Shown: positions 6,811-31,872 of the stretch, piece by piece
Position numbering within the stretch: position 1 is the first letter of the stretch
Layout of the letters: each line of letters opens with the position of its first letter
Assembly: GCF_017876815.1 (NCBI RefSeq)
Contig: NZ_JAGIOS010000001.1
Coordinates: forward strand, 660,001 to 692,000
DNA: 32,000 nucleotides
Reading direction: 5' to 3'
Source: Sinorhizobium meliloti
GTDB taxonomy: Bacteria > Pseudomonadota > Alphaproteobacteria > Rhizobiales > Rhizobiaceae
Translations under genes and position numbers: made by a program
Notes under the pieces: generated by a model
What the model was told of the DNA's origin: nothing
Seen by the model: only the letters and a program-made list of their open reading frames with translations
Databases searched by the model: none

Positions 6811-6813
6811 CTT

Positions 6814-7308: not shown

Positions 7309-7319
7309 CGGAGACGACG

Positions 7320-9215: not shown

Positions 9216-9224
9216 GAGGCCACC

Positions 9225-12944: not shown

Positions 12945-13229
12945 CTACTTCACCGCGGTGACGGTCAGCTTGCCGTCGACGCGTTCGGCGACGAATTCGA
13001 TCTGAGCGCCTTCCTTCAGCTTCGACAGCAGGGCTTCGTCCTTGACCCGGAAGACCATCGTCATTCCAGGCATTTCGAGCTCCTTCAGGTCCTCGTGCAT
13101 CAGTGTGACCTTCTTCGCCTTGGCATCGACCTTCTTGACGGTGCCTTTGGTGAAGTCGGCGGCGAAAGCGCCATAGGCCGTGCCGAGAGCGAGGGCGAAG
13201 GCCAGCGTGGACTTTACAATCGTTTTCAT
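12945..13229 (-). CDS. CusF-like periplasmic Cu(I)/Ag(I)-binding protein
   Basis: Signal peptide followed by GTVKKVDAKAKKVTLMHEDLKELEMPGMTMVFRV...GAQIEFVAERVDGKLTVTAV, the CusF/SilF pattern with the MPxMTMxF motif. Confidence 0.8.
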   Translation of the reverse strand: MKTIVKSTLAFALALGTAYGAFAADFTKGTVKKVDAKAKKVTLMHEDLKELEMPGMTMVFRVKDEALLSKLKEGAQIEFVAERVDGKLTVTAVK

Positions 13230-13250
13230 GTGAGACCCTTTCCTGAGGAT

Positions 13251-13730: not shown

Positions 13731-13769
13731 CGTATTGTCCTTTGGTTGGTTGAAGATGGTCATGCGGTA

Positions 13770-15119
13770 TCACCCGTGTTTGGAGTGCTTCGGCGTGATC
13801 TGGGTCTTTGCGTTGTCGGCCCTGGTCCAGTCGGGAAGCTCGCCCGTCCACTCCCAGGCCTGCGTTCCGGGCGGGTTTTCGTACCAGCCGGGATCGGAGT
13901 AATCGTCCGCCGAGATGCCCTCGCGCACCTTGACGACGGAGAACATGCCGCCCATCTCGATCGGCCCGTGCGGTCCCCAGCCGGTCATCATGGGTATGGT
14001 GTTTTCGGGAAGTTCCATTTCCATCTTGCCCATGTCGGACATGCCGGCCGTGCCCATCGGCATGTATTCCGGGCGGACTTTCCGGATCTTTTGCGCGACT
14101 TCCTTCTTGTCGACCCCGATGAAGGTCGGGATGTCGTGTCCCATGGCGTTCATCGTGTGGTGCGACTTATGGCAATGGATCGCCCAGTCACCCGCGTATT
14201 TGGCGTCGAATTCGTAGGCCCGCATGGCGCCGACCGGAATGTCGATGCTGACCTCCGGCCACCGCGCCTCCGGCCGGACCCAGCCGCCGTCGGTGCACGT
14301 GACCTCGAAGTCGTAGCCGTGCATGTGGATCGGGTGGTTGGTCATGGTGAGGTTACCGACCCGTACGCGCACACGGTCGTTCTTGGAAACGACGAGCGGG
14401 CTGATGTCCGGGAATATGCGGCTGTTCCAGCACCACATATTGAAGTTGGTCATTTCCATGACGCGCGGCACGTAGGAGCCCGGCTCGATGTCGTAGGCGT
14501 TGAGCAGGAACACGAAATCCCGGTCGACCGGCATGAACTTCGGGTCCTTGGGATGGATCACGAAGAAGCCCATCATCCCCATCGCCATCTGCACCATTTC
14601 GTCGGAATGCGGGTGGTACATGAAGGTGCCGGACTTCACGAGATCGAACTCGTAGACGAAGGTCTTGCCGGGCGGGATGTGCGGCTGCGACAGCCCGCCG
14701 ACCCCATCCATGCCGGACGGCAGGATCATGCCGTGCCAGTGGATCGTCGTCGGCTCCGGCAGCTTGTTGGTGACGAAGATGCGGACCCGATCGCCCTCGA
14801 CCGCTTCGATCGTCGGACCCGGCGACTGGCCGTTATAGCCCCAGAGATAGGCGGTCATGCCCTCGGCCATCTCGCGCTCGACCGGCTCGGCGACGAGATG
14901 GAACTCCTTGACGCCGCTGTTCATCCGGTGAGGCGCGGTCCAGCCGTTGACGGTCACCACCGGGTTGTAGTCGGGGCCGGAGGCCGGACGGACGGGAGCT
15001 TGCGTTTCCGCCGTCTCCATGATTGCCGCTTCCGGCAGGCCCATATTCGACGTTTTCGCCCAGGCGGCGGTGGATACCAGTGCGGCGCTCGCGCCGAGTA
15101 ACTGTCGTCTGTTGAACAT
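13770..15119 (-). CDS. Multicopper oxidase (CopA/PcoA-type) with a Tat signal
   Basis: Twin-arginine leader MFNRRQLLGASAALV. Cu-binding motifs HWHG, HPHSD, HPIHMHG and HCHKSHH. Met-rich C-terminal segment (MPMGTAGMSDMGKMEMELPENTIPMM). Confidence 0.9.
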   Translation of the reverse strand: MFNRRQLLGASAALVSTAAWAKTSNMGLPEAAIMETAETQAPVRPASGPDYNPVVTVNGWTAPHRMNSGVKEFHLVAEPVEREMAEGMTAYLWGYNGQSPGPTIEAVEGDRVRIFVTNKLPEPTTIHWHGMILPSGMDGVGGLSQPHIPPGKTFVYEFDLVKSGTFMYHPHSDEMVQMAMGMMGFFVIHPKDPKFMPVDRDFVFLLNAYDIEPGSYVPRVMEMTNFNMWCWNSRIFPDISPLVVSKNDRVRVRVGNLTMTNHPIHMHGYDFEVTCTDGGWVRPEARWPEVSIDIPVGAMRAYEFDAKYAGDWAIHCHKSHHTMNAMGHDIPTFIGVDKKEVAQKIRKVRPEYMPMGTAGMSDMGKMEMELPENTIPMMTGWGPHGPIEMGGMFSVVKVREGISADDYSDPGWYENPPGTQAWEWTGELPDWTRADNAKTQITPKHSKHG

Positions 15120-15133
15120 GTTCGGTTCCTTTC

Positions 15134-16579
15134 TCAGTTGCCGCTTTCGGCGGCCGCTGCGACCTCAGTTTCGCCGGAGGCTCCGCCGCCGTAAATCGCC
15201 GGAGCCAGATCCGCCTCGGCCAGCCAGAAGTCGCGCTTGGCGTTGATCGCGAGCAGGATCGAATTGACCTTTTCGCGGCTGTCGGCGAGCAGTTCGAAGG
15301 TGCTGGTGATCATCCCGTTATAGGTGAGGAGGGACTGCTCCTCGATCTTGGTGCGCAGCGGCACGACGCTGTTGCGGTAGTGCCGGGCGATGTCGTAGTT
15401 GGCGCGGTAGGCCTGATAGGCCGAGCGTGCTTCCGAGCGGACATTGACGGCCTTCTCGGCGAGAAGGTTCGCCGCCCGCATATAGGCGAGCTCGGCCTTG
15501 CGCATGCGCGCCTTGCCGCTGTCGAAGATGGGAATGGCGAATTCGAGATCGACCCGGCCGGTCGTCTCCGACGAAATGTCGCCGTCCTCCTTTGCCCGCT
15601 CGGTCTCGAAGCCGGCGAGGAGGTTGAGGTCGGTGACGTAACGGGTGGCCTCGGTCAGATTGTAGGATCTGGCCGTCGCCTCCAGGTCGAGCTTCGCCAT
15701 CTGGAGATCGACACGGCGCCGCAGGGCTTCCGCCTCGATCTGGTCGCGCTTCATCAGGCCCTTCGGCAGGGAAGCCAGCCGGTTCGGCACCTGGAATTTG
15801 ACGTCCGAACCCCAGAGGCCCAACAGCCGCGTCAGTTCCTCCTTGGCCAGACGCGCCTCGAGCCGCGCCTTGGCCCCTTCTCCCGCCAGTTCGGCGTAGA
15901 AGACATGCTCGCGGGCCTGCGACCCCTTCGTCATGGCCCCGCTCTCGCCGAGCTTTTCGGCAAGCTCGGACGCCGCGTCGGCCGCCGCCTGCGCCTGGTT
16001 GAGCTGGCCCACCGTTTCCCAAGCCGCTACGGCATTGATCCAGGCACGCCGCGTCTCGGAAGCAAGCTGCAACGTGCGCGAAGCGGCATCCAGCTGCGCC
16101 TTCCGGAACTCGGTGTCGGCGAGCGCGATATTCCTGTCGCGGGTGACGAGCGCGAGAATGTTGGAGACGATCGCGCCCTCGACCGTCCGGAACGCCGTAA
16201 GTCCAGGCGTGCCGATTCCCGTAAGCCCGACACCGACGGTCGGGTTGACGAGCATTGTCGCCTGCCAGACGTCGGCCGCCGACTCGCCGAGATCGGCATA
16301 GGCCGCCTGCAGCCCCTTGTTGTTGAGCAGCGCGACCTGGACCGCCGTCTCGACGTCGATGGTCTTCTTCGCCATCAGCGCCTTCACCCGCTCGGAGACG
16401 GAGCGGGCCTGTTCCTGGTTCTGCACCCATACGGTCTGCTTGCCGGCGGCTTCGGCCGTTGTCGCCGCGACCAGGGAAAACCCGGCATTCTTAACCGCGT
16501 ACTCGCCAGCGGTAACGCAGCCGCCGAGTACCAGCGGCAGTGCGAGCGTCGCCGCCAGCTTCATCCTGGCTTTCATCAT
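15134..16579 (-). CDS. TolC/CusC-family outer-membrane efflux lipoprotein
   Basis: Lipobox LVLGGC. Long Ala/Leu/Glu-rich coiled repeats typical of the OEP family (two halves, each with ...Y.A..dLg.s.adv / L.r.i.E..L.tyN.M...). ATGA overlap with the upstream small gene. Confidence 0.85.
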   Translation of the reverse strand: MMKARMKLAATLALPLVLGGCVTAGEYAVKNAGFSLVAATTAEAAGKQTVWVQNQEQARSVSERVKALMAKKTIDVETAVQVALLNNKGLQAAYADLGESAADVWQATMLVNPTVGVGLTGIGTPGLTAFRTVEGAIVSNILALVTRDRNIALADTEFRKAQLDAASRTLQLASETRRAWINAVAAWETVGQLNQAQAAADAASELAEKLGESGAMTKGSQAREHVFYAELAGEGAKARLEARLAKEELTRLLGLWGSDVKFQVPNRLASLPKGLMKRDQIEAEALRRRVDLQMAKLDLEATARSYNLTEATRYVTDLNLLAGFETERAKEDGDISSETTGRVDLEFAIPIFDSGKARMRKAELAYMRAANLLAEKAVNVRSEARSAYQAYRANYDIARHYRNSVVPLRTKIEEQSLLTYNGMITSTFELLADSREKVNSILLAINAKRDFWLAEADLAPAIYGGGASGETEVAAAAESGN

Positions 16580-18152: not shown

Positions 18153-19457
18153 TCACACCCGTACGGATTGCTCCACGAAATCCTCGCTGCCGAAAAATTT
18201 CAGATAGCGCTCGACCTCGGCTGGATCCCCCGTCGCCTTGCGCGGGTTGTCCGAGAGCTTGACGGCCGGACGGCCATTTGCCTCGCTGACCTTGCATACG
18301 ATGGAGATCGGGTTGAGGCCGTTGATTTCGGTCGGGGCGCAGCCGGCGAAATCATTCGTCAGGTTCGTTCCCCAGCCGAAGCTCATGCGCACGCGCCCTC
18401 CGAAATGGCAGTAGGTCCTGATGATCGTGTCGACGTCGAGGCCGTCGGAGAAGATCAGAAGCTTCTCCCGCGGGTCTCGGCCCATCTTCTTCCACCAGGC
18501 GATGATCTTCTCGCCTCCCTCGATGGGCGGGGCACTGTCCGGCCGGAAGCCGGTCCAGTCCGCCACCCAGTCGGGTGCATCCCTGAGGAACGCGGCCGTC
18601 CCGAACGCGTCCGGGAGCACGATCAGGAGGTTGCCGCCATAGAGCTGGTTCCAGTCCTGCAGAACCTTGTAGGGCGCGGCCGCAAGCTCGCGGTCGTTGC
18701 GGGCAAGCGCCGCAGCCACCATCGGCAGCTCGTGCGCATTGGTGCCGACCGCCTCCAGATCATTGTCCATTGCCAGCAGCACGTTGCTCGAGCCTGTGAA
18801 GGACGAGCCGATGCCTTCCTTGAGCGCCTCGACGCACCAGCGCTGCCATAGGAAGCTGTGCCGCCGGCGCGTACCGAAGTCGGAAATGCGCAGGTTCGGA
18901 TGCTCCCGCAACTGCTCGACCTTCGACCACATCTTGGCCTTGGCGCGGGCATAGAGGACGTCCAGCGTGAATGGGCCGAGCCCTTTCATCGCCGCGCGCG
19001 AGCGCAACTCGTTGATGATCGCGAGCGCAGGGATTTCCCACATCGTCGTCTCGGCCCAGCGGCCACGAAAGGTCAGTTCGAATTGGCCGTCACGACGCGA
19101 CAGCTCGTATTCCGGAAGGCGGAATCTTGCGAGCCAGGCGAGAAATTCCGGCGAAAAGATCTGCGTGCGGCCATAGAAGCTGTTACCCGCAAGCCATATC
19201 ATTTCTTTCTTGGTAAAGCGCAGGCCTCGCGCGTGGTCGAGCTGGTCGCGCAGTTCCTGTTCGTCGATCTCGTCGGCAAGGCGCACCGTCTTCGTGCGGT
19301 TGATCAGCGAAAAGGTCGCGTCCACGTCCGGATAGAGCTGCCAGATCATCTGCAGCATCAAAAGCTTGTAGAAATCCGTATCGAGCAGGCTGCGGACGAT
19401 CGGATCGAGCTTCCAGGTATGGTTATAGACCCGTCGCGCGATATCGGTCTTTGGCAT
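18153..19457 (-). CDS. pncB: Nicotinate phosphoribosyltransferase
   Basis: [39 protein letters not shown]... together with full-length family features ([32 protein letters not shown]). ATG 19457 is preceded by GAGGAG. The track's longer N-terminus is Arg/Pro junk. Confidence 0.92.
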
Positions 19458-19572
19458 GCAATACGCTCCTCTTGGACCGTCATGACCCGCTCTGAAGCGA
19501 GGCGATCGTGGTCGATATCCTAAGTCCGAGCGGGGATGCGGCCGACGCCGCACTTCCCCGTCCCGGGGGCGA

Positions 19573-20172
19573 CTAGATCAGCCGGACGCCGGCATCGCGC
19601 ATGCGCAGGGTCATGGCCGCAAGCGAGCCGTTCAGATCGATGCCACGGCAGGCGCCGAGCACCACCGACGTCGAAAAACCCTTGGCGACCGCATCGAGTG
19701 CCGAGAAGGCAACGCAGAAATCGGTAGCCAGGCCGCAAAGCGTCACGCTTTTTATGCCGCGCTCGCGCAGGTAACCGGCAAGCCCGGTCGGGGTCCGGTG
19801 GTCGTTTTCGAAAAAGGCGGAATAACTGTCGATCTCGCGACGGAAGCCCTTGCGTATGACGAGCTCCGCCGAGGTCCATCGCAGGGACGGATGAAAATCG
19901 GCACCGGCGCTCCCCTGGACGCAATGCTCGGGCCAGAGCGTCTGCTCTCCGTAAGGCATCGCCACGGTCTGAAACGGAGCCTTGCCCGGATGCGTCGAGG
20001 CGAAACTGGAATGGCCGGCCGGGTGCCAGTCCTGCGTCAGGACGACATGCGGCGACGCGTCGATGAGGCGATTGACGGCGGGCACGATTTCATCGCCGCC
20101 CTCGACCGCGAGAGCGCCGCCGGGGCAGAAGTCGTTCTGCATATCGATAACGATCAGGGCTTCGTCAGCCAT
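19573..20172 (-). CDS. pncA: Nicotinamidase / pyrazinamidase
   Basis: [19 protein letters not shown] ... [12 protein letters not shown] ... [10 protein letters not shown] is the isochorismatase-family nicotinamidase catalytic pattern (Asp, Lys, Cys and a His metal site). ATG 20172 follows GAGAGG. Confidence 0.9.
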
Positions 20173-20281
20173 TGCCTCTCGCAAATCCGGCCGAGCCGCA
20201 TCGGCCATCAACAAATCGATCCCGATCACGATGATTCAGGTCGGATCGACCTAAGTCATGAACGTGATCGATTCTAATAAG

Positions 20282-20335: not shown

Positions 20336-20447
20336 ACCAGATCAATCATAGAACGCGCGCGGCGGCAAGCATGTTCGACGCTCGCGACGTGAATCCCGGC
20401 GAACCTGCGAAGCTTATAAAGGTGATTGATTATAAGACGTTAATGCA

Positions 20448-20504
20448 TGCCGGCCGAAAGCATTCAGCCGGCAGCCGCGTCGACACCGCCCACGCCTGGT
20501 GTCG
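20448..20504 (-). terminator. Two tandem hairpins downstream of rkpU
   Basis: CGACACC-N10-GGTGTCG (20481-20504) and TGCCGGC-N12-GCCGGCA (20448-20473) lie directly after the rkpU stop on the minus strand. There is only a weak T-rich tail. Confidence 0.35.
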
Positions 20505-20517
20505 GCCCACTCCAACG

Positions 20518-21705
20518 TCAGTTGTTGAAATCGTTGAGATTGTCGGCGACGTTCACGCCGGAATTCACGATACCGATCGGCCGTGCGACGAAATCGAGGA
20601 ATTTCGTGATGTCGACAGAGGGATGGCGCGAGGCGTAGATGACGTCGCGATTCTTGACCGGGAAGGTCTGACCGACGATGAGGCTGTCCGGTTTCGTCAT
20701 GTCGAACCGGTAGACGACCGGGTAGCGCCCGACGCGGTCGGCCTTCATGCCCTTGCTCAGCAGCTTGTGAAAACGCTCCTGCCCGAGCAGGCTCATGACG
20801 ATATCCGGCTCCTCGTAGCGGAACACGAAGTAACCTTTGGCATCCACCGTCCGGTCCGAGCCGCCGCCGGCGAGCGCCACGGCCTCGAGCAGGTTGAGAT
20901 CGTTGGCGCCGAACTCGACGCGCTGATTTGCCCGCACCTGGCCGAGCACCGTGAAGGTGCGCGGATCGCGCGTCACGAATATCTGGTCGCCCGGCTTTAC
21001 GTGAATGTTTTCCGAGGGGCTCTCGATGATCGACTTCAGCAGGACCGTGCCGGTCTTCTTGCCGCGCACCAGCGTCACATAGGTCTCGTAGGGCTGCGCC
21101 GATGGCCCGCCCGCCTTCGCGATGACCTCGTTGATCGTCTCGCTGACGAGATTGAGAGGCACGACAGAAGGACGGCCGACGGCACCGGACACCGTGACGA
21201 TGCGCGACGCCGTCGACGTCGACGTCACGATCACGTCCGGCTCGACGGCCTTCTGTTTCAACGCATCGAGGATCGCCTGGCGCGCCTGCTCGAGCGTCAG
21301 GCCGGCAAAACGGACCGATCCGACATAAGGGATTGCCGCCTTGCCATCGGGCTGGACGACGAGATCGATGCTCGTCTGCTTCGATTCAGTTGTGGAAAAC
21401 AGCCCGTCGCTGCCCGCCTCGAAGATCGTGACCTTCAGCTGGTCGCCAATGCCGATGACCACCTGACCGACGCCGCCGCCGATGCCGAAGCGGCGGCTGA
21501 GGGTTGTGGAAACATATTCGGAGACGAGCCGCGCCGACTGGCCATCGACATCTACAATATCAAATACCGTCGCGTTCCTTCTGCCGATCTCCGAGCCGGA
21601 CTGGCCGGCATCCGAAACGATATCGGTTGTCAGAGGGCCCTCGCCCGGCACGGCCTGGCATCCCGCAAGCGCGGTACAAAGCAGAAGGGCAGTCACTCGT
21701 TTCAC
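20518..21705 (-). CDS. rkpU: Wza/KpsD-family outer-membrane polysaccharide export lipoprotein
   Basis: Lipobox LLLCTALAGC. Poly_export motif region (GDQLKVTIFEAGSDGLFS...DGKAAIPYVGSVRFAGLTLEQARQAILDAL) followed by SLBB-like repeats (VTVSGAVGRP..., FTVLGQVRANQ...). It sits immediately upstream of and divergent from rkpA, as rkpU does in Sinorhizobium. Start: GTG 21705 lies 7 nt after GGAG; the alternative is ATG 21741. Confidence 0.85.
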   Translation of the reverse strand: MKRVTALLLCTALAGCQAVPGEGPLTTDIVSDAGQSGSEIGRRNATVFDIVDVDGQSARLVSEYVSTTLSRRFGIGGGVGQVVIGIGDQLKVTIFEAGSDGLFSTTESKQTSIDLVVQPDGKAAIPYVGSVRFAGLTLEQARQAILDALKQKAVEPDVIVTSTSTASRIVTVSGAVGRPSVVPLNLVSETINEVIAKAGGPSAQPYETYVTLVRGKKTGTVLLKSIIESPSENIHVKPGDQIFVTRDPRTFTVLGQVRANQRVEFGANDLNLLEAVALAGGGSDRTVDAKGYFVFRYEEPDIVMSLLGQERFHKLLSKGMKADRVGRYPVVYRFDMTKPDSLIVGQTFPVKNRDVIYASRHPSVDITKFLDFVARPIGIVNSGVNVADNLNDFNN

Positions 21706-21741
21706 TACGACACTCCGTGTTCGGCACAGCAATGATTCCAT

Positions 21742-22108: not shown

Positions 22109-25100
22109 ATGACGGTTGAAATCATAGGGCGTGCATGCCTTGCCCCGGGAGCGAAATCTCCGCAGGCGCTGTTCAAAATCCTTCGTCAGGGCAAGTGCAC
22201 CGTGACCCGCGTCCCTTCGGACCGCTGGGACCTTGCGCGTTTCTGGCACCCGGTCATGGGCACGCCCGGCAAGACCTATTCGTTTGCCGCCGGCGTTCTC
22301 GACCATATCTACGATTTCGATCCCGCCGTTTTCGGGATGTCGCAGCGCGAGGCCATGTATATGGACCCGCAGCAGCGGGTTCTGTTGCAGCTCGCCTGGC
22401 GAGCGCTCGAGGACGCCAATATTTCCGTGGCGTCGCTGCACGGTGAAAATGTCGGCGTCTATGTCGGCGCCTCCAGCCTCGACCACGCCAATCTGACGGT
22501 CGACGATCCGGCTGCCGCCGGGCCCTACTTCATGACGGGCAATACGCTGTCGATCGTCTCCAACCGTATTTCCCACGTCTTCGGCCTGAGCGGCCCGAGC
22601 ATGACCGTCGACACGGCCTGTTCCTCTTCGCTCGTGGCCCTCGATCAGGCGATGCGGGCGCTGAACGCCGGAGAGATCGACACGGCCATCGTCGGCGGCG
22701 TCAATATCCTCGCCCACCCGCTTCCCTTCGTCGGCTTCGCCCAGGCGCGCATGCTCTCGCCCGAAGGGCTCTGCCGCGCCTATGACAATGACGGCGCCGG
22801 CTATGTTCGCGCCGAGGGCGGCGTCGTCTTCGTCCTGCGCCGCACCGACCGGGCGCAACGCGAGCGCGACCGGAGCTATGCCCGGATCGTCGCCTCCGGC
22901 GTCAATTCGGCCGGGCGCACCAACGGCATCTCGCTGCCCTCGCGCGAGGCGCAGGCCAATCTGCTGAGGATGATCTACGAAGGCAACGGCATCGACGCCA
23001 ACCAGGTCGCCTTCGTAGAAGGCCATGGTACCGGCACGAAGGTCGGCGACCCGGCGGAGGTATGGTCCATAGGCACGGTGATCGGCGCGAAGCGCCGGGC
23101 CCCGGTGCCGATCGGCTCGATAAAGTCCAATATCGGCCATACCGAGCCGGCCTCCGGCCTGTTCGGGATGATGAAGGCGGTTCTGGCTCTGGAGAACAAT
23201 TATCTGCCGGCCTCGCTGCATTTCGAGACGCCGAACGAGCAGATCGACTTCGACGGCCTCAATGTCCGTGTGACCGCCAATCCGATCGAGCTTCTGAAGG
23301 GCAAGCGGGCGCGGCTCGCCGGCATTAATTCCTTCGGCTTCGGCGGCGCCAACGCCCATGTCGTCATCAGCGATCCGGATCCGGCACAGGCGGAAAAGGC
23401 TGCGACCTCGCCGGCGGGCCACGTGTTTCTGGCAAGCGCCCATACCGCGTCGAGCCTCGAAAACCTGCTCAGAGACTATAAGGCCGCCTTTGCGGGCGCG
23501 ACGAAGGAAGAGACGCGCGCGATCGTCGCCGCCTCCGGCGCCAATCGGACGCATATGCGCCATCGGTTCGCGGCACGCAGCGATCATCCCGAAGATATCA
23601 TCCGGGCGATTGCCAACCACCTGGAAAAGCCCGGCTCCGATATCGGGGAGACGGGCGAAGCGGCCGCGAAAGAAGCAAAGGTCGCCTTCGTCTTCTCCGG
23701 CAACGGCTCGCAATGGGCCGGCATGGGTGTCGAGGCCTTCCGCGAGAATCTGCACTTCCGTCAGTCGTTCACTTCGGTCAGCGCCCTTTTCAGGTTCCAT
23801 TCGGATATCGTCCTCACCGATCTCCTGACCGACCCCGGACTCGACAGGAAGCTCGCGGATACGAAGGTGGCCCAGCCGCTGCTTTTCGCGATACAGGCCG
23901 CGCTCTCCGACTCGCTCGTGGCCATGGGCATCAAGCCGACCGCCGTCTTCGGTCATTCGGTCGGCGAAATCGCTGCGGCTTATGCAGCGGGGGCGCTGTC
24001 GCTCGTCGACGCCGTGTCGATCGTCGCCAAACGATCGCTGCACCAGGACCTTCTGGCCGGCCAGGGCACGATGGCGGCCGTTATGCTGGGCGAGGAGGCA
24101 GCCAAGGCCTTCGCGGCGGAGCGCGGTCTCGACGATGTCTGCGTCGCAGCAATCAACGCTCACAATTCGGTGACGATTTCCGGCCCGGCGAACGAGATCT
24201 CGGCGTTCCGCGACGCTGCGCGCAAGGTGAAAATCCCGGTTCAGATCCTCGACATCAATTATCCGTTCCACCATCCGATCATCGACCGGGCGAAAGAGGC
24301 GTTCCTCTCCGACATCCCTGATATCGCCCCCCGACGGACGGAGCTGGCCTATCTGTCGACCGTCACGGGTGCCGCGCTCGACGGGACTGCTCTCGATCCC
24401 GACTACTGGTGGAAGAACGTTCGCGAGCCCGTGCGTTTCCAGGCCGCAGCCGAGGCCGCGCTCGATCTCGGCTGCATGCTGTTCATCGAGATCTCGCCGC
24501 GTCCGATCCTTGGCTCCTACGTCAAGGAGACGATCAAGCAGGCGGCAGTGCCGGCTTCGGTGGTGGCGACATTGCTGCGCGACGCCGGCGCGAACGGCCA
24601 CGATCCGATCTCCGCGTCGATGGCGCGCGCAGTCGCCCACGGTGCCGCCGTCGACCGGTCGCGTGTCTATGGCAAGCGGGACGCATTCATCGAACTCCCC
24701 GCGCTGCCCTTCGAGCCGGTGGAACTGCGGCCGGCGGCCACGACCGATGCGACGGATCTCTTCGGACGTTCCGCAAAGCCCTATCGGCTCAACGGCTGGC
24801 GCGGCGACCCCAATGCGGGAAGCTGGAAAAACCACGTCGACGCGCATCTCTTCCCTGATCTCGCCGAACACGTGGTCGACGGCAAGGCGATCCTCCCGGG
24901 CAGCGGTTTCATCGAAATCGCCGTTTCCGCCGCCCAGCAATATCACGGCAGCGACGAGGTCGAGATCACCAATCTGGAGATCGTCCGCCCGCTCGAACTG
25001 AGCGACAGCCGCATCATGGAACTCTCGACCATCCTGTCGCCGGAGACCGGCGACATCGAGATCCGGTCGCGCGAACGTCTCTCGGAAGACGATTGGACGG

Positions 25101-28100
25101 TGCATGCCGTCGCGCGAAGCCGCAAGCCCTTGCCGACGACGAGCAACGACTGTCCGTCCACCAAAGGCTTGGCGAAGACGGCGACCGTGACGGCGGCCAA
25201 GGCCTATGAAACGGCGAAGCAGTTCGGGCTGGACTACGGCCCGCAATTCCAGCTTCTCTCCAAAGCCGTGGCCTATGGCGACCGGCTCATCGACGTCGAG
25301 TTGAAGCACCCCCAGGCATCGGGGCACCCCCACGTCACCTACGCCCTTCATCCGATCTCGGTCGACGCGACCTTCCACGGCCTGGTCGCACTCTTCGACC
25401 GCTTCACCGGCGACAAGGGCGGCGCCCCCTATATTCCTGTCCGTTTCGGCTCCGTGCGCGTCGTCAATGCCGGCCGGCCGATCGCCCGCGCAACGATCGA
25501 GATCGAGCGGGTCAGCGCCAACTCGATCAAGGCACGGTTCCATTTCTTCGACGAGACCGGCGTCGCGATCGCACACTTCGAGGATTGCCGCTTCCGCCGT
25601 ACCTATCTGCGCAAGCACAAGACGCTTGAAGGCCTTTCCTTCCACTATGAGGCAGTTCTGTCGGACGTGGTCATGCCCGGCACGAAAGTTGCGACGGCCA
25701 TGCCTGCGACGCTGGCCGAGCCGATCGATGACAATGGCGTCGACAACGCGACCCTGCTCTTCAACGCCGCCATCTACCGCGCCTGCCAGGAAATTGCCCT
25801 GAAGCTCGGCAGGGGGACCGCCACAGTGCGAGGCGACGCGCTGCCCGGGGACTTCGCGTTCCAGTGCTTCCTGACGAGCTGCCTGCTGACGCTCGAGGAT
25901 GCCGGCCTTTGCGAGCACCAGAACGGCAACTGGAAGGTCGCACGGGAGTTCTCGCTTCCGACCGTTCCGGAGATCCTTGGCGAGCTCTATGGCGACCGCC
26001 CCGATCGTGCGGTGGAAGCGGTGCTCGTCAACAACGCCTATGCGGAAGCACTCAGCCGTCTCGACGCGCTGCTTGGGCCGGTGCGTGCAGGCGACGACGC
26101 GGCTTCGTTCAATGCCGGTTTCATCAGCGAAGCGACGCTCGACCATCAGGCCGTGCATTCCGTGGCGAGCCGGTCCCGGATGGACCAGGTGCTTCATACG
26201 GTCGAACACGTTCTCGCTGCGCAGCCGGCAGGCGCCCGCCTGCGTCTCATCGAACTCGGCAGCGTCTCCGCCGGCTTCAGCCGCCGGCTGGCCGATCTGG
26301 CAGCGCGCAATGGTGCAGCACTTTCCATTTTCGAGCCGCGCGACAATGCACAACGGAATCTGGAAATCGCCTTCGAGGAGGATGCGCATGTGCGCGTTCT
26401 GAAGAAGAGCGAATTCGCCGATATCGGCCCGTTCGACCTCGCCGTAAGTGCTTCGGACAATCTCTACCAGCTGATCGAAGAGGAGAGCGGCGTCCGCACG
26501 GCCCTTCGCTCCATGCCCCCCGGAAGCGGGCTCGTCGCGGCCGTCAGCGCGCCGTCGATCTTCGCCGATTTCGCCTTGGGTCTCTCGGGCGGATGGTTCG
26601 AGCGCAGCCAGACGGCAGAATTCCCGATCGGCAGGATCGCGGCCGTACCCCATTGGCAGAAGTGTCTCGCAGATCTCGACCTCGGCGACGTGGTCGTGAC
26701 GGATCGCGAATGCCCGCATGGGAACACCATCCTGATCGAGGCCCGGGGCACAGCGGCGGCGGGCGCAGGCGCCGAGCCGGGCGAAATCGCGACACCATAT
26801 CTGCTGATCGAGACTGCCACTGCCCAGAAACCGGTCGCAGCCGGTGGAAGGAGTGCCGCTCCCGTCCGTGTGACAGGCGACCTTGCCGCAGACATGGCGA
26901 CGCTCCGCGCAGCCCTCGAAGCCATGGGCGACAGACCGTTGCGCGCGGTTTTCATGTCCGAGGCGGAGCGCGCCGCCGGCGACGGTTCGACCCTGCTGCA
27001 GACGCGTGTATTGGCGCTCAGCGCCTTTGCCGAGGCATTGAAACAGCATCTCGCCGGCGTCGAGCCGGAGGGCGACGACCGGCCGCGCCTAGTGCTCGTG
27101 GCCCCGGGCGGCGCTCCCTTGTCAGCCTCGGCAAGCTCCGGGCTGAATTCCGGATTGTGGGCCTTCGCCCGCGTCCTTCAGAACGAATATGAGTTTATCG
27201 ACGTCCACACGCTCGATCTTGCCGGTGATGCCGACATCGGCCGCAAGGATATGCTTGCCGCAGCGCTTCCCCTGCTGAGGGTTTCGGGACAGAACCGGGA
27301 ATGGCTGCTCGACCGGAAGACGGGCCTGCTGTCGGAGCTTCGGGCCGTACCCGGCGCAACGAACAAGGCTGACGGGAAAACCAACGCCTTCGCGGCCGCG
27401 ACCATTCGCCAGCGCGTCAGCTCGCAGGTTGCAAGCATCGCCTGGGAAGAGGCGAGCGTACCGGAGCCGGGCCCCAACGAGGTCGTCGTCGCCGTCGCGG
27501 CAACCGGCTTGAATTTCCGCGACGTGATGTGGGCCATGGGCCTGTTGCCGGAAGAGGCGTTGGAAGACGGCTTCGCCGGGGCAACCATCGGCATGGAACT
27601 GTCCGGCCACGTGGTCGCGGTCGGCGAAGAGATCGACGATCTCGCGGTCGGCGATGCGGTGATGGCGATCGCCTCCGCCGCCTTCTCGACCCATGCGGTC
27701 GTCGCGCGCGCCGGCATCGCCAAGCTGCCGCGAGCGTTGAGCCCGGTGGCCGCGGCCACATTGCCGGTCGCCTTCCTTACCGCCTACTACGCCATTGTCG
27801 AGCTCGGCCGCATTCAGGCTGGAGAGACGATTTTGATCCACGGTGCTGCCGGCGGCGTCGGCCTTGCCGCGCTCCAGGTCGCAAAGCTCAAGGGCGCCAA
27901 GGTCATCGCCACGGCGGGAACGCGCGAAAAGCGGCGCTTCCTGACGATGCTCGGCGCCGATCATGTCTTCGATTCGCGTTCGCTCGGCTTCGTCGAGGAT
28001 GTCCGTTCGGTCACCGGCGGGGAAGGCGTCGACCTCGTGCTCAATTCGCTTTTCGCCGAAGCGATGGAGCAGAGCCTCTCGCTGGTGAAACCCTTTGGCC

Positions 28101-29617
28101 GGTTCCTGGAACTCGGCAAGCGCGACTATTACGCCGACAGCAAGATCGGGCTCAGGCCGTTCCGCCGCAATGTCAGCTATTTCGGCATCGACGCCGATCA
28201 GTTGCTGGTGAATGCGCCGGATCTGACCAGGCGCATCTTCATGGAGATCGGAGCGCTCTTCGAGGAAGGCAAGCTCACGCCGCTTCCCTATCGCGCCTTC
28301 GATTACGATGAAATCGGCAATGCCTTCCGGCTGATGCAGAATGCCGGGCATATCGGCAAGATCGTGGTGCTGCCGCCCGTTGCCGGCAGGCACGAGGTGA
28401 CGGCGAAGGCTGTGAGGGGCATGAAGGTCGACCCGGACGGCGTCCATCTCGTCGTCGGCGGCATCGGTGGCTTCGGCCTCGTCGCCGCCAACTGGCTCGT
28501 CGAGAAAGGCGCACGCCGTATTGCGCTTTGCTCCCGCCGAGGCCAGCCGGATGCGGAGACGCGCGCGATGATCGAGCGCTGGCAGAATGGCGGCGTTGCG
28601 GCTTCGGTCCATGCTTGCGACATCACGGATGCCGCGGCCGTGGAGACGCTTCTGGCGACGCTTCGTTCGGAAGCACCGCTTCGCTCCGTCGTTCACGCGG
28701 CGATGGTGCTCGACGATGCGCTGATCGGCAATCTGAGCCGCGAACGCAACCGGCCGGTCATCGACACGAAAGCCAAGGGCGCGGCAATTCTCGATCGCCT
28801 TACCCGTGGTGACAGGCTCGACAACTTCATCCTGTTCTCCTCGGCCACGACGCTGGTCGGCAACCCCGGCCAGGCGAACTATGTCGCCGCCAACGGCTAT
28901 CTCGAAGGCCTTGCCCGTGCACGGCGCCAGGAGGGCCTGGCAGGGCTCGCCATCGGCTTCGGCGCGATTGCCGATGCCGGCTACCTGACGCAGAACGCCG
29001 ATGTCAACGACCTGCTCGCCAAGCGCATCGGCAAAACGGCGCTGAAGGCCCAGGTGGCGCTCGACATGGTGGAAAACCACGTCGCCGCGGATCCGGGCAC
29101 GGTCGACGCGGCCGTCGTGATGATTTCGGAGATCGACTGGACGGCTGCGCGGAACCTGCCGGTCGCCCGCAACGCGCTCTTCGAGGTGATCCTGCGCAGC
29201 GCCGATCAGCATGCCGCAGGCGCCGAGGGCACGACGATGGATCTCGTCGCCATGATCGAAGGCAAATCGCCGCAGGAGGCCGAGGACATCCTCTTCGATC
29301 TAGTGGCCGGCGAGATCGCTGCCATCCTTCGCGTCTCGAAGGATACGGTCACTCGCGGAAAGATATTGAAGGAGATCGGCCTCGACAGCCTCATGGCCGT
29401 TGAACTCGGCATGAGTTTCCAGCAGAACACCGGCTTCGACATGCCTTTGAGCGGCGTCGCGGACAATACCACGGTCGGCGACATCGCGCGCAAGCTCCAT
29501 GAAAAGGTAAGCAAGCGTGACCAGGGCAACGAGAACGAGGCCGGTGACGACAAGCTTGTAACAGAACTCACGCAGCGTCATGTCGGAGCGGACAAGGAAA
29601 AAGCACTGAGTCAATGA
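22109..29617 (+). CDS. rkpA: Fully reducing type I polyketide/fatty-acid synthase (KS-AT-DH-linker-ER-KR-ACP, no thioesterase)
   Basis: KS: VEIIGRACLAPG, DTACSSSL (Cys codon 22619), EGHGTGT, NIGHTE. AT: FVFSGNGSQWAGMG, GHSVGE (Ser codon 23957). DH: HVVDGKAILPGSG (His codon 24869). ER: LNFRDV..., ILIHGAAGGVGLAALQ (about 27390-28375). KR: VVGGIGGFGL (about 28440-28990). ACP: LGLDSLMAVEL (Ser codon 29387). Start taken at ATG 22109, giving 2502 aa; the track start is TTG 22058. The size and context match my recollection of rkpA in the rkp-1 region. Confidence 0.95.
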   Translation: MTVEIIGRACLAPGAKSPQALFKILRQGKCTVTRVPSDRWDLARFWHPVMGTPGKTYSFAAGVLDHIYDFDPAVFGMSQREAMYMDPQQRVLLQLAWRALEDANISVASLHGENVGVYVGASSLDHANLTVDDPAAAGPYFMTGNTLSIVSNRISHVFGLSGPSMTVDTACSSSLVALDQAMRALNAGEIDTAIVGGVNILAHPLPFVGFAQARMLSPEGLCRAYDNDGAGYVRAEGGVVFVLRRTDRAQRERDRSYARIVASGVNSAGRTNGISLPSREAQANLLRMIYEGNGIDANQVAFVEGHGTGTKVGDPAEVWSIGTVIGAKRRAPVPIGSIKSNIGHTEPASGLFGMMKAVLALENNYLPASLHFETPNEQIDFDGLNVRVTANPIELLKGKRARLAGINSFGFGGANAHVVISDPDPAQAEKAATSPAGHVFLASAHTASSLENLLRDYKAAFAGATKEETRAIVAASGANRTHMRHRFAARSDHPEDIIRAIANHLEKPGSDIGETGEAAAKEAKVAFVFSGNGSQWAGMGVEAFRENLHFRQSFTSVSALFRFHSDIVLTDLLTDPGLDRKLADTKVAQPLLFAIQAALSDSLVAMGIKPTAVFGHSVGEIAAAYAAGALSLVDAVSIVAKRSLHQDLLAGQGTMAAVMLGEEAAKAFAAERGLDDVCVAAINAHNSVTISGPANEISAFRDAARKVKIPVQILDINYPFHHPIIDRAKEAFLSDIPDIAPRRTELAYLSTVTGAALDGTALDPDYWWKNVREPVRFQAAAEAALDLGCMLFIEISPRPILGSYVKETIKQAAVPASVVATLLRDAGANGHDPISASMARAVAHGAAVDRSRVYGKRDAFIELPALPFEPVELRPAATTDATDLFGRSAKPYRLNGWRGDPNAGSWKNHVDAHLFPDLAEHVVDGKAILPGSGFIEIAVSAAQQYHGSDEVEITNLEIVRPLELSDSRIMELSTILSPETGDIEIRSRERLSEDDWTVHAVARSRKPLPTTSNDCPSTKGLAKTATVTAAKAYETAKQFGLDYGPQFQLLSKAVAYGDRLIDVELKHPQASGHPHVTYALHPISVDATFHGLVALFDRFTGDKGGAPYIPVRFGSVRVVNAGRPIARATIEIERVSANSIKARFHFFDETGVAIAHFEDCRFRRTYLRKHKTLEGLSFHYEAVLSDVVMPGTKVATAMPATLAEPIDDNGVDNATLLFNAAIYRACQEIALKLGRGTATVRGDALPGDFAFQCFLTSCLLTLEDAGLCEHQNGNWKVAREFSLPTVPEILGELYGDRPDRAVEAVLVNNAYAEALSRLDALLGPVRAGDDAASFNAGFISEATLDHQAVHSVASRSRMDQVLHTVEHVLAAQPAGARLRLIELGSVSAGFSRRLADLAARNGAALSIFEPRDNAQRNLEIAFEEDAHVRVLKKSEFADIGPFDLAVSASDNLYQLIEEESGVRTALRSMPPGSGLVAAVSAPSIFADFALGLSGGWFERSQTAEFPIGRIAAVPHWQKCLADLDLGDVVVTDRECPHGNTILIEARGTAAAGAGAEPGEIATPYLLIETATAQKPVAAGGRSAAPVRVTGDLAADMATLRAALEAMGDRPLRAVFMSEAERAAGDGSTLLQTRVLALSAFAEALKQHLAGVEPEGDDRPRLVLVAPGGAPLSASASSGLNSGLWAFARVLQNEYEFIDVHTLDLAGDADIGRKDMLAAALPLLRVSGQNREWLLDRKTGLLSELRAVPGATNKADGKTNAFAAATIRQRVSSQVASIAWEEASVPEPGPNEVVVAVAATGLNFRDVMWAMGLLPEEALEDGFAGATIGMELSGHVVAVGEEIDDLAVGDAVMAIASAAFSTHAVVARAGIAKLPRALSPVAAATLPVAFLTAYYAIVELGRIQAGETILIHGAAGGVGLAALQVAKLKGAKVIATAGTREKRRFLTMLGADHVFDSRSLGFVEDVRSVTGGEGVDLVLNSLFAEAMEQSLSLVKPFGRFLELGKRDYYADSKIGLRPFRRNVSYFGIDADQLLVNAPDLTRRIFMEIGALFEEGKLTPLPYRAFDYDEIGNAFRLMQNAGHIGKIVVLPPVAGRHEVTAKAVRGMKVDPDGVHLVVGGIGGFGLVAANWLVEKGARRIALCSRRGQPDAETRAMIERWQNGGVAASVHACDITDAAAVETLLATLRSEAPLRSVVHAAMVLDDALIGNLSRERNRPVIDTKAKGAAILDRLTRGDRLDNFILFSSATTLVGNPGQANYVAANGYLEGLARARRQEGLAGLAIGFGAIADAGYLTQNADVNDLLAKRIGKTALKAQVALDMVENHVAADPGTVDAAVVMISEIDWTAARNLPVARNALFEVILRSADQHAAGAEGTTMDLVAMIEGKSPQEAEDILFDLVAGEIAAILRVSKDTVTRGKILKEIGLDSLMAVELGMSFQQNTGFDMPLSGVADNTTVGDIARKLHEKVSKRDQGNENEAGDDKLVTELTQRHVGADKEKALSQ

Positions 29618-31029
29618 GCAACGACGGAAACGGCCAGACCTTCCCGAAAATGAACAGCAGTCTCAAGGAGAGCCTGTTGGACAGGATGCGGAACACGCAT
29701 CAATCGTCCGAGCGCAACCGGATGGCGCGCTCGGAGCGGGAGTTGCCGCCGGCTCCGCGTCGCCAGCAGGCGCGTTTCGAGGATCTACCCGAGTATAAGC
29801 AGGTCCTTACGCAGAAGATCGCCAGCGAGCAGCTCGGCATCGCCAACCCGTTCTACCGGCCGCATCAGACGGCAGCCGGTGCGACGACGATGATCGATGG
29901 CCGCAAGCTGATCAACTTCGCCTCCTATGACTATCTCGGGCTCAACCGGCATGCTCACGTCCTCGAGCGGGCGCGCGAGACGATCGCCGGCTTCGGGATT
30001 TCCGCGTCGGCGAGCCGCCTCGTTGCCGGCGAACGGCCGCAGCATGTGGAGCTGGAAGAAAAGATCGCGCAATTCTGCGGCGTTGATGCCGCCGTCTGTT
30101 TCGTAAGCGGCTACCTGACGAATGTCGCCGCGATCAGCTGCCTGATGGGGCCGAAGGACCTCGTCATCCACGACGAGTTCATCCACAACAGCGCGCTCGC
30201 CGGGATCAAGCTTTCAGGCGCGACACGCCGCTTCTTCAAGCACAACGAGACCGCGGATCTCGAGCATGTCCTGCGCACCGTCGCCGGTGACTACCGGCGC
30301 ATCCTGGTGATCGTCGAGGGCATCTACTCGATGGACGGCGACGTCGCCAATCTGCCGGCGCTTCTGAAGCTCAGGGCCGAATACGGTTTCTGGCTGATGG
30401 TCGACGAGGCGCATTCGCTCGGGGTCCTCGGCCGGCACGGCAGGGGCCTCGCCGAACATTTCGGGGCCGATCCGCACGAAGTCGACATCTGGATGGGAAC
30501 ATTGTCGAAGACGACGTCGAGCTGCGGCGGCTACATAGCAGGAAGCGCCGCCCTGGCGGCCGTGCTGAAGGCATCTGCCGGCGGCTTCGTCTATAGCGTC
30601 GGCCTCGCGCCCGTGCTTGCCGCATCCGCGGTCGCCAGCCTCGACATCCTGGCAAGCGAACCGGAACGCACGGCGGCGGTGAGACGCAACGGCAGCCTGT
30701 TCCTGAAGCTTGCCAAGGAGGCCGGCCTCGATACCGGGCTGAGCGGCGGCTTTTCGGTCGTGCCTGTCATCGTCGGGGATTCGCTGCGCGCCGTCCAGCT
30801 TTCGAACGACCTGCTCGCCGCCGGCGTCAACGTCCTGCCGATCATCCACCCGGCGGTGCCGGAAGGACAGGCGCGCTTGCGCTTCTTCATCACCTGCGAC
30901 CACACCGAGGAACAGATCCGCCGCACCGTCACATTGACGGCCGAACGCCTGAAGGATCTCACCGACCGCAATTTCGGCCTCGGCGGCGTCGATATCGAGA
31001 AGATGCTGAGTGCGCTCTCGGCGCGCTGA
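29614..31029 (+). CDS. rkpG: PLP-dependent alpha-oxoamine synthase (AONS / serine palmitoyltransferase family)
   Basis: INFASYDYLGL, SGYLTNVAA, MVDEAHSLGVLG and GTLSKTTSSCGGY (PLP lysine). The ATG overlaps the rkpA stop as ATGA (29614-29617). There is an N-terminal extension of about 90 aa before the conserved fold. Confidence 0.9.
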   Translation: MSNDGNGQTFPKMNSSLKESLLDRMRNTHQSSERNRMARSERELPPAPRRQQARFEDLPEYKQVLTQKIASEQLGIANPFYRPHQTAAGATTMIDGRKLINFASYDYLGLNRHAHVLERARETIAGFGISASASRLVAGERPQHVELEEKIAQFCGVDAAVCFVSGYLTNVAAISCLMGPKDLVIHDEFIHNSALAGIKLSGATRRFFKHNETADLEHVLRTVAGDYRRILVIVEGIYSMDGDVANLPALLKLRAEYGFWLMVDEAHSLGVLGRHGRGLAEHFGADPHEVDIWMGTLSKTTSSCGGYIAGSAALAAVLKASAGGFVYSVGLAPVLAASAVASLDILASEPERTAAVRRNGSLFLKLAKEAGLDTGLSGGFSVVPVIVGDSLRAVQLSNDLLAAGVNVLPIIHPAVPEGQARLRFFITCDHTEEQIRRTVTLTAERLKDLTDRNFGLGGVDIEKMLSALSAR

Positions 31030-31068
31030 CCACCAGCCGCCGCAGGCGGGCCGCCAACGGGTTCGTCC

Positions 31069-31872
31069 ATGACACATGTGATCATCACCGGCGGCTCGAG
31101 CGGAATTGGCCTTGCGGTCGCCTCGATCTACGCGGCCCGCGGAGCGCGGCTCTCTCTTGTCGCACGCTCGCGCGATCTTCTGGAGAAGGCAGCACAGAAT
31201 CTGGTAGCCGAACACGGTCTCGAGGCTGGAGCTGTCCGTGTGGAGGCCGCCGATGTCTCCAAAGGAGAGGAGATCGAGGCCGCGGTCTTCCGCTGTGTGG
31301 ATGCGTTCGGACCCTGCGACGTTCTCGTGACCTCGGCAGGCGTCGTCGAACCGGCGCCATTCGAGGCGATGCAGGGCGCGGCCTTCCACCGGCAGATGGA
31401 AACGAACTTTTCGGGCACGGTGCATGCCGTGCGCGCAGTTTATCCGGACATGAAGAACAGGCGCCGCGGCCATATTCTGATGGTTTCTTCGGGTGCCGGC
31501 CTGATCGGCATCTACGGATATACCGCCTACTGCGCCTCGAAGTTCGCGCTTAACGGCTTCGCCCAGGCGCTGCGCAGCGAAGCGCGCGCCCACAATGTCG
31601 GCATTTCGATCTGCTTTCCACCCGATACGGAGACGCCGCAATTCAAGAGGGAGCTTGCCGCCCGGCCAGTGGAGGCAAGCGTAATCATGGGAACCGTCCG
31701 CCCATGGACGGCCGAGGCGGTCGCGCGAAAGATCGTCAAGGGCATCGACCGGCGGCGCTTCGAGATTTATTTTGGCGCGGTCTTGTATCTTCTCGGCCGC
31801 TTCGGGCCGGCGGTCAGGCCTTTCCTCAATTGGTGGTTCGACCGGGCAATCGCGCGCAACAGTGGACTGTGA
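31069..31872 (+). CDS. rkpH: Short-chain dehydrogenase/reductase, 3-ketodihydrosphingosine-reductase-like
   Basis: VIITGGSSGIGLAVA (NAD(P)-binding motif), SSGAG ... YCASK (catalytic Ser/Tyr/Lys). Its position after rkpG matches rkp-1 loci. Confidence 0.9.
   Translation: MTHVIITGGSSGIGLAVASIYAARGARLSLVARSRDLLEKAAQNLVAEHGLEAGAVRVEAADVSKGEEIEAAVFRCVDAFGPCDVLVTSAGVVEPAPFEAMQGAAFHRQMETNFSGTVHAVRAVYPDMKNRRRGHILMVSSGAGLIGIYGYTAYCASKFALNGFAQALRSEARAHNVGISICFPPDTETPQFKRELAARPVEASVIMGTVRPWTAEAVARKIVKGIDRRRFEIYFGAVLYLLGRFGPAVRPFLNWWFDRAIARNSGL

Follow-up and report, generated by a model that had tools for sequence, protein, structure and literature searches.

What is made by the genes of the rkp-1 locus of Sinorhizobium meliloti that were first read as fatty-acid-synthase-like, and how would their product serve the K-antigen capsule? 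Invasion of the legume host by Sinorhizobium depends on this capsule, and in Burkholderia pseudomallei the homologous wcb capsule is both a vaccine antigen and a major factor of virulence. We have analyzed a window of 32,000 nucleotides (nt) from S. meliloti (contig NZ_JAGIOS010000001.1, positions 660,001 to 692,000) that contains rkpU, rkpA, rkpG, rkpH and the start of rkpI, together with the corresponding genes of other bacteria. RkpA is a polyketide synthase (PKS) without a release domain, RkpG an alpha-oxoamine synthase (AOS) whose gene overlaps that of the PKS, and RkpH a short-chain dehydrogenase/reductase (SDR) of the KDSR subfamily. With moderate confidence we propose that these three proteins make a sphingoid-like amino-alcohol lipid, which RkpI and RkpJ would extend to a primer or anchor of the capsule.

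Identity of the Locus

The rkp-1 locus was described between 1993 and 1997 (Petrovics 1993, Kiss 1997). It has been reported that rkpU and rkpA-J are needed for the capsular polysaccharide (KPS), and "a specific lipid carrier" was proposed; a literature summary lists rkpG, H, I and J as genes of which each, when mutated, affects KPS. The original reading of rkpA-F was "fatty acid synthase-like", and a fused rkpA, which in the older split annotation appears as rkpABCDEF, is described for strains Rm41, 1021 and HH103. The locus and the idea of a lipid carrier are therefore already known, and the gain reported here is a precise and testable pathway, not a new locus. Our searches of the open literature turned up no paper in which the product is assigned, and none that connects RkpG or RkpH, PKSs or oxoamine synthases with a sphingolipid or a capsule lipid.

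The window is part of the S. meliloti chromosome and carries the rkp-1 K-antigen capsule locus. Compared at the protein level with S. meliloti chromosomes it shows 99.6-100% identity, and its G+C content is about 63%. RkpG is 99.6% identical to the protein encoded by CP090106.1, four S. meliloti genomes encode an identical RkpG with the same neighboring genes, and the rkpA gene is 100% identical in S. meliloti genomes. The gene order, rkpU followed by the divergent rkpA-G-H-I-J, agrees with the published description. Genes were defined by filtering the open reading frames (ORFs) of the window on G+C content at third codon positions (GC3) and by a Pfam scan. GC3 of the ORFs of the locus is 0.74-0.84, and their large size, intact motifs and high GC3 exclude chance ORFs.

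A Reducing Synthase without a Release Domain

The domains of RkpA follow the order ketosynthase (KS), acyltransferase (AT), dehydratase (DH), linker, enoylreductase (ER), ketoreductase (KR) and acyl carrier protein (ACP). The catalytic motifs of all six domains are intact (Table 1); the active-site motif of the KS is DTACSSS, and Pfam recognizes a KS C-terminal extension at residues 375-486. The ACP corresponds to what the older, split annotation called RkpF, a carrier protein that is named as an ACP in the literature. No thioesterase, reductase or condensation domain was found by Pfam in the whole protein, nor in its last 155 residues at E<=10. Pfam, motifs and C-terminal scan are thus in agreement with the initial annotation of this DNA, made from the letters and ORFs alone, which had given the same domain order and no release domain. 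By its motifs RkpA belongs to the fully reducing type I synthases that resemble PKSs and fatty acid synthases (FAS), and it is a member that lacks the release domain. As the motifs of the reductive domains are intact, a saturated chain would be expected from RkpA, and the xxFH motif of the AT suggests malonyl specificity.

The region between DH and ER had been noted as a linker of about 570 residues. The linker is present, but it is longer than that, with 623 residues between the Pfam boundaries. In 22 orthologues from four proteobacterial classes its length is kept at 558-666 residues and the sequences can be aligned at 22-27% identity, so it is not a mere spacer. At the aligned position the orthologues from Nitrosomonas, Caballeronia and one alphaproteobacterium (L056) match Methyltransf_23/12 above the Pfam cut-off, while the linker of S. 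meliloti RkpA has no Pfam or PDB match even at permissive thresholds. Because the S-adenosylmethionine (SAM) motif is degenerate, in S. meliloti (LIELGSVSAG) as in nearly all orthologues, the middle part of the linker is probably an inactive methyltransferase fold, as in animal FAS. Its C-terminal part may be a structural pseudo-KR, judging from its position and a WGFGRV-NEYP-like motif; hhalign detected nothing between this putative pseudo-KR and a true KR or ER, and a single-sequence AlphaFold model of the linker gave no usable fold (pLDDT 37.6).

An Oxoamine Synthase Coupled to the PKS

RkpG matches Aminotran_1_2 of Pfam (1e-44), and its residues 79-440 align with the solved serine palmitoyltransferase (SPT) of S. 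multivorum. The catalytic set of SPT and BioF is complete, as the initial annotation had read it, with the stacking His (H191), the Asp-x-x-His pair (D264 and H267), the Lys that binds pyridoxal 5'-phosphate (PLP; K299, in TLSK) and the carboxylate-binding Arg (R421/R423). RkpG is thus a member of the AOS superfamily. Within the superfamily it reaches no curated family cut-off of NCBIfam. The best score is that of the bioF model (357.9 bits, cut-off 426.45); the three SPT models give 300.8, 269.5 and 198.8 bits against cut-offs of 640, 500 and 670, Kbl gives 296 bits (cut-off 460) and 5-aminolevulinate synthase (ALAS) 241 bits (cut-off 339). Scores against solved enzymes are flat, from 234 bits for bacterial SPT through Thermus BioF/KBL (225), SPTLC2 (204), Kbl (197), ALAS (190) and E. 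coli BioF (176) to CqsA (85).

A neighbor-joining tree was calculated with E. coli BioF, E. coli Kbl, Thermus BioF/KBL, S. multivorum SPT and human SPTLC2 as references; it is without ALAS, CqsA and Fum8, and ALAS and CqsA were compared by PDB bit score alone. In this tree 25 RkpG-like proteins formed one clade in 100/100 bootstraps. Identity is at least 50% within the clade and 30-35% to the BioF, Kbl and SPT references. On this evidence we assign RkpG to a PKS-coupled AOS clade of its own, separate from BioF, Kbl and SPT; the grouping with BioF, which had been named beforehand as the result that would speak against a role in lipid synthesis, was not observed. Proteins of the clade have an N-terminal extension of about 60-80 residues (residues 1-78 in RkpG, 29614-29850), absent from solved SPT, BioF and Kbl, which contains a conserved RFxxLPxY motif with F55 and P59 invariant. 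The extension may be a docking element for the ACP of the PKS.

As had been pointed out in the initial annotation, the TGA of rkpA and the ATG of rkpG share the sequence ATGA at 29614-29617. A survey with one genome per species yielded 80 loci with an RkpG-like gene, and in 71 of the 80 species an RkpA-like PKS of about 2500 residues is encoded directly upstream. Of the 65 loci whose junction could be evaluated, 51 have a start codon of the RkpG-like gene that shares 4 nt with the PKS stop, six show some other overlap and eight a gap no longer than 30 nt. The adjacency is conserved across four proteobacterial classes. Among the sources of the loci are Rhizobiaceae, Methylobacterium, Pseudovibrio, Nitrosomonas, Leeia, Castellaniella, Thiobacillus and Desulfomicrobium, and plasmids of Pseudomonas, Caballeronia and Microbulbifer. 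That RkpG off-loads the PKS is supported most strongly by this conserved adjacency, with its overlap of stop and start. The five genes for PKS, AOS, SDR, an LtaS-like and a KpsS-like protein are found together in the stretch examined in 31 of the 80 species, and all five are also present in a Pseudomonas plasmid locus from outside the survey. In 53/80 species capsule genes (Wza, KpsMTE, KpsS/C, KpsF) are found beside the PKS-AOS pair; KpsM/T/E and KpsC adjoin it in Nitrosomonas, Leeia, Caballeronia, Desulfomicrobium and others.

The surroundings of the pair vary. Hansschlegelia and several Methylobacterium have a two-gene PKS-AOS unit (L040 and L074, also L046, L049, L052, L062 and L070); no recognizable capsule gene was found within 10 kb downstream of it, and in L074 a double GT2 glycosyltransferase is encoded upstream of the pair. 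AOS genes of the RkpG clade also occur without a PKS, in Arthrospira (L085, 4796-12961) and in a metagenome-assembled Hyphomicrobiaceae genome (L057, 9908-13791). The former lies behind two fatty-acyl-AMP-ligase-like genes and an Asp/Asn beta-hydroxylase gene and ahead of a B12-binding radical SAM enzyme gene, and the latter is followed by a penicillin-amidase-family gene. In Caballeronia an LpxC-like deacetylase is encoded between PKS and AOS (L007, 13907-14833). The Pseudomonas plasmid locus carries genes for a GNAT N-acetyltransferase and a PhyH-type (phytanoyl-CoA) dioxygenase (L006, 16252-17295 and 19411-20013), and a PhyH-type dioxygenase is also encoded in two Methylobacterium loci (L044, L047). 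These lineage-specific additions hint that the lipid may be tailored in its N-acyl and hydroxyl groups.

A Reductase of the KDSR Subfamily

RkpH contains TGGSSGIG at residues 7-14 and YCASK, its YxxxK motif, at residues 154-158. The initial annotation had compared it on these motifs with 3-ketosphinganine reductases, and this comparison is borne out by 38% identity to human KDSR over 250 of its 267 residues (173 bits, E 4e-57; the query was confirmed by exact look-up as KDSR_HUMAN). The alignment spans TGGSSGIG, the Ser-Tyr-Lys region and the C-terminal PPDTxTP. As a yardstick, human KDSR and the fungal KDSR TSC10 score 104 bits against each other, and RkpH scores at most 110 bits with any solved SDR, there being no KDSR among its 60 best solved-structure matches. 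Because 173 bits exceeds both of these values, we classify RkpH as a genuine SDR of the KDSR/TSC10 subfamily. Automatic annotation already hints at a sphingoid link, in that orthologues of RkpH, among them the original Rm41 entry Q52937, carry the name "3-dehydrosphinganine reductase" in UniRef and JGI. Between close relatives RkpH diverges much faster than RkpG: the two are 82% and 97% identical to their S. medicae counterparts, and 93% and 98% to those of Ensifer sp. USDA 6670.

A Proposed Link to Kdo Chemistry

Directly behind rkpH in Rhizobiaceae come rkpI and rkpJ, which the initial annotation had overlooked and which would link the lipid to the chemistry of 3-deoxy-D-manno-octulosonic acid (Kdo). 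The window ends 47 nt into rkpI. RkpI has 538 residues and a domain of the Sulfatase superfamily. By sequence it matches just two enzymes of the PDB, GacH, a phosphoglycerol transferase, and LtaP, a primase of lipoteichoic acid synthesis. It shares with them QSESF, NHGPW, YGDH and GGYT, whose Thr is the nucleophile; the metal ligands are kept. In a Foldseek search with an AlphaFold2 model of RkpI (pLDDT 81) the best matches were LtaP, GacH and LtaS (E 1e-12 to 1e-10), including GacH with bound sn-glycerol-1-phosphate, while phosphoethanolamine transferases and sulfatases ranked lower. Hydropathy of the family shows six hydrophobic segments, that is, a multi-pass membrane region, followed by the C-terminal catalytic domain. 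By the positive-inside rule this domain probably faces the periplasm, as in all characterized relatives. Motifs and model together place RkpI with the phosphoglycerol-transferase-like enzymes of the GacH/LtaS type. Its family is small and separate, with 250 matches at E<=1e-5, and no NCBIfam model matches RkpI.

RkpJ has 441 residues and matches Capsule_synth (PF05159) over the full domain with 417 bits. Against the NCBIfam KpsS model it scores 194 bits, with a cut-off of 600, and we take it as a KpsS-like (beta-Kdo transferase) family member, not a strict equivalog. A gene for the isomerase KpsF follows rkpJ on the opposite strand. Together RkpI and RkpJ suggest a lipid-phosphoglycerol-Kdo primer.

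A Proposed Mechanism of Lipid Assembly

The sequences allow us to propose how the parts of the locus could work together. RkpA would act as a single-module, iterative synthase similar to mammalian FAS (KS-AT-DH, a putative inactive methyltransferase fold and pseudo-KR, then ER-KR-ACP) and would grow a saturated chain, presumably a long one, from malonyl units on its own ACP, with no means of releasing it. RkpG, translated in step with RkpA, would take over the ACP-bound acyl chain and condense it with a small amino acid in a PLP-dependent, decarboxylative Claisen reaction, which would release it as a 2-amino-3-oxo lipid. The amino acid could be Ser, Ala or Gly. An acyl-ACP as AOS substrate has a reported precedent in the SPT of Caulobacter, which works with AcpR. 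Reduction of the 3-oxo group by RkpH would then give a 2-amino-3-hydroxy lipid resembling a sphingoid base. To this RkpI would add a phosphoglycerol head group, or a related phospho-alcohol, from phosphatidylglycerol, and RkpJ would start the Kdo chain on the head group. Domain content, catalytic residues, family membership and conserved linkage of the genes are seen in the sequences, whereas the chemical steps with their chain length and amino acid, the order and the membrane side of the RkpI step and the role as anchor are all inferred. Such a pathway would end in a dedicated single-chain lipid-phosphoglycerol-Kdo primer or anchor, in the role that lyso-phosphatidylglycerol has in E. coli group 2 capsules, with export through the ABC transporter of the rkp-3 region and RkpU. 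A PKS-derived lipid that carries phosphoglycerol would bring the genes into accord with the "phospholipid anchor" reported for the Kdo homopolymer of S. meliloti 1021.

The sphingoid lipid of this pathway is a prediction, well supported by homology and gene context. Several observations weigh against the pathway. The S. meliloti KPS anchor is reportedly a phosphoglycerol with hydroxy-octacosanoic acid, partly identified, with no amino alcohol mentioned. In the single published description that we could trace, it is called a "phospholipid anchor" in the title (Fraysse 2005), and a review states that B. pseudomallei that has lost the region containing wcbR shows a reduced, not an abolished, capsule. 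Not all PKS-AOS pairs have a capsule gene within 10 kb; some are solitary. RkpI is predicted to be periplasmic, whereas enzymes of the KpsS type are cytoplasmic; if RkpI acted before RkpJ, the lipid would have to flip twice, or else RkpI acts late and on something else. Finally, an SDR of the KDSR type (127-186 bits to KDSR) is found only in loci of the Rhizobiaceae type, and another SDR, of a generic kind and with 57-86 bits to KDSR, is encoded in the loci of Burkholderiales, Pseudomonas, Microbulbifer and Methylobacterium. The non-KDSR loci are L005-L007, L041-L047, L056, L067, L071, L083 and others, as against the KDSR-like L001-L039. The differing SDRs may represent non-orthologous replacement of the same step. 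The sphingoid pathway of the initial annotation is partly supported, in that its sequence of a PKS without thioesterase, off-loading by an AOS and KDSR-type reduction fits the evidence; the last of these enzymes is confined to Rhizobiaceae.

Three other explanations were considered. Much of what has just been listed would be accommodated if the trio made an amino-alcohol or related lipid that is not the covalent anchor but a separate envelope lipid or a transient carrier, mature KPS being attached to a conventional glycerophospholipid. This agrees with the description of the anchor as a phospholipid, with the PKS-AOS pairs away from capsule genes in Methylobacterium and Hansschlegelia and with the mere reduction of the B. 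pseudomallei capsule, and a periplasmic RkpI would suit a late modification better than primer synthesis. It leaves aside, however, that rkpI and the KpsS-like rkpJ stand directly behind rkpH in Rhizobiaceae, that plasmids of distant lineages carry all five genes together, and that mutations in rkpG, H, I and J are each summarized as affecting KPS; we regard it as rather unlikely. Still less probable, in our judgment, is that RkpA is in essence a dedicated FAS, and that its product, an acyl chain of great length and perhaps with a hydroxyl group, forms the phospholipid anchor as an ester of glycerol phosphate, with RkpG and RkpH in accessory or regulatory roles and no amino alcohol made. Although this would keep the first reading of rkpA-F and fit the phospholipid report as well as the hydroxy-C28 acyl group reported for the anchor, the locus encodes no acyltransferase or thioesterase to move the chain onto glycerol phosphate, the KDSR-type reductase would be without a role, and the complete Claisen-condensing set of RkpG, together with its coupling to the PKS in 51/65 loci, argues for off-loading.

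That RkpG is a housekeeping enzyme of the BioF, Kbl or ALAS type, placed beside the PKS by chance, is what many databases imply by naming it 8-amino-7-oxononanoate synthase, and the bioF model does give its best NCBIfam score. Yet that score (358 against 426 bits) falls short like every other equivalog score, the clade split and the identities separate RkpG from BioF, Kbl and SPT alike, and the position behind a PKS in 71/80 species does not look accidental. This explanation is effectively refuted.

If the proposed PKS-derived, sphingoid-like lipid with its phosphoglycerol-Kdo extension exists, it would represent a second way to anchor group 2-type capsules and a new class of bacterial lipid, and the RkpG-clade AOS and the RkpI-type transferase would be pathway-specific targets for drugs and diagnostics. 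The proposal can be widened, tentatively and with more doubt than conviction, to the conserved module of PKS, AOS, ketoreductase, GacH/LtaS-like and KpsS-like proteins as a whole. In many alpha-, beta- and gammaproteobacteria, including those with Burkholderia wcb loci, the module might build a single-chain sphingoid-type phosphoglycerol lipid that replaces lyso-phosphatidylglycerol as Kdo acceptor and anchor of capsules exported by ABC transporters. This would be a class of polyketide aminolipid, and of capsule anchor, not previously recognized in bacteria.

Other Features of the Window

The capsule exporter that the initial annotation had placed next to the trio is rkpU, encoded on the minus strand and divergent from rkpA, with the Pfam domains Poly_export (1.6e-14) and SLBB_2 (8.4e-18) and a match to the NCBIfam polysaccharide export protein (1.3e-29). 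Public gene calls begin it at 21705 (395 residues), and the ORF is open to 21870. A plus-strand ORF at 20371-21735 was rejected as RkpU; it is without a Pfam match. Scanning the DNA between rkpU and rkpA for promoters turned up no sigma-70-like site. No KpsM/T/E transporter or KpsC gene was found in the window or within 10 kb downstream; in S. meliloti these genes are reported from the separate rkp-3 region.

Ahead of the locus, a prophage-like or integrative element occupies 526-11429 and has a DnaN-like sliding clamp of its own (Table 1). It is followed on the minus strand by a gene for a protein with an adenylate/guanylate cyclase domain (11608-12855) and by a copper-handling cluster (12945-16579) coding for a CusF-like periplasmic copper binder, a cupredoxin, a multicopper oxidase and an outer-membrane efflux protein (OEP). 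A nicotinate phosphoribosyltransferase gene paired with an isochorismatase/nicotinamidase-like gene (18153-20229, minus strand) adjoins rkpU. No tRNA genes were found anywhere in the window.

Table 1. Coordinates of the rkp-1 genes, the RkpA domains and the genes of the prophage-like or integrative element (positions in the window; residue numbers refer to RkpA).
Feature	Start	End	Strand	Remarks
rkpU	20518	21870	-	Wza/KpsD-type outer-membrane polysaccharide export protein; divergent from rkpA
rkpA	22109	29617	+	2502 residues; iterative fully reducing type I PKS/FAS-like synthase, no release domain
RkpA KS	22115	23227	+	residues 3-373; Cys171, HGTGT, NIGHT
RkpA AT	23687	24601	+	residues 527-831; GHSVGE, YPFH
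RkpA DH	24821	25600	+	residues 905-1164; HVVDGKAILP
RkpA DH-ER linker	25601	27469	+	residues 1165-1787; conserved region, probable methyltransferase fold in the middle part
RkpA ER	27470	28369	+	residues 1788-2087; GGVGLAA
RkpA KR	28439	28972	+	residues 2111-2288; GIGGFG, LDD, YVAAN
RkpA ACP	29303	29491	+	residues 2399-2461; GLDSL, Ser2427
rkpG	29614	31029	+	471 residues; PLP-dependent AOS of the PKS-coupled clade
rkpH	31069	31872	+	267 residues; KDSR-subfamily short-chain reductase (TGGSSGIG, S-Y-K, PPDTETP)
rkpI, first 15 codons	31954	32000	+	GTG start; remainder beyond the window
Primase-like Zn-ribbon protein	526	1755	-	
CII-like regulator	3698	4195	-	
Helix-turn-helix and S24 peptidase repressor	4421	5281		
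SSB	6814	7308		
GapR-like DNA binder	7305	7739		
DnaN-like sliding clamp	7989	9215		the element's own
HNH endonuclease	9725	10093		
Tyrosine integrase	10203	11429		

Relation to Characterized Systems

The rkp-1 regions of S. meliloti Rm41 and 1021 and of S. fredii (rkpU, rkpA-J) are the same locus as the one described here, with no difference at the gene level. The Burkholderia wcb capsule clusters, with the PKS WcbR, and the Nitrosomonas rkp clusters are homologous to it. RkpA and WcbR have been recognized in published work as one group of PKSs associated with capsule export genes, and in our survey PKS-AOS pairs of the rkp-1 type were found in Nitrosomonas, Caballeronia and other genera.

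The closest enzymatic parallel is the sphingoid line of SPT and KDSR/TSC10, in which likewise an AOS is followed by an SDR of the KDSR family; the best solved relative of RkpG is bacterial SPT, with 234 bits. The SPT line uses palmitoyl-CoA, whereas the acyl donor of the rkp line would be the PKS-bound chain. The rkp-1 locus differs further in that RkpG lies outside the SPT clade and cut-offs, no ceramide synthase is encoded at the locus, and the context is a capsule instead of a membrane sphingolipid. In the Caulobacter ceramide pathway (SPT with acyl-AcpR, bCerS and CerR) the AOS is, as proposed for RkpG, fed by an acyl carrier protein and not by CoA. Its reductase is not known to be KDSR-like and acts after N-acylation, and unlike rkp-1 the pathway has no PKS and no capsule context. 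In logic rkp-1 resembles the fungal fumonisin line, in which the reducing PKS Fum1 has no release domain, the AOS Fum8 off-loads the chain with an amino acid and Fum13 reduces the 3-keto group; that line belongs to a different kingdom, and its product is a toxin, not a glycolipid primer.

On the side of the capsule, RkpI is like LtaS, LtaP and GacH in motifs, fold and architecture, at an identity of just 16-20%. The KPS of S. meliloti 1021 is reported as a Kdo polymer on a lipid, and a lyso-phosphatidylglycerol-Kdo terminus is documented for E. coli K5. In the group 2 capsules of E. coli and Neisseria, lyso-phosphatidylglycerol carries a poly-Kdo linker made by KpsS and KpsC, and rkp-1 shares with them the KpsS-like RkpJ and the adjacent KpsF. 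The E. coli group 2 loci contain no PKS, AOS, SDR or LtaS-like genes; rkp-1 has all of these beside its KpsS-like gene.

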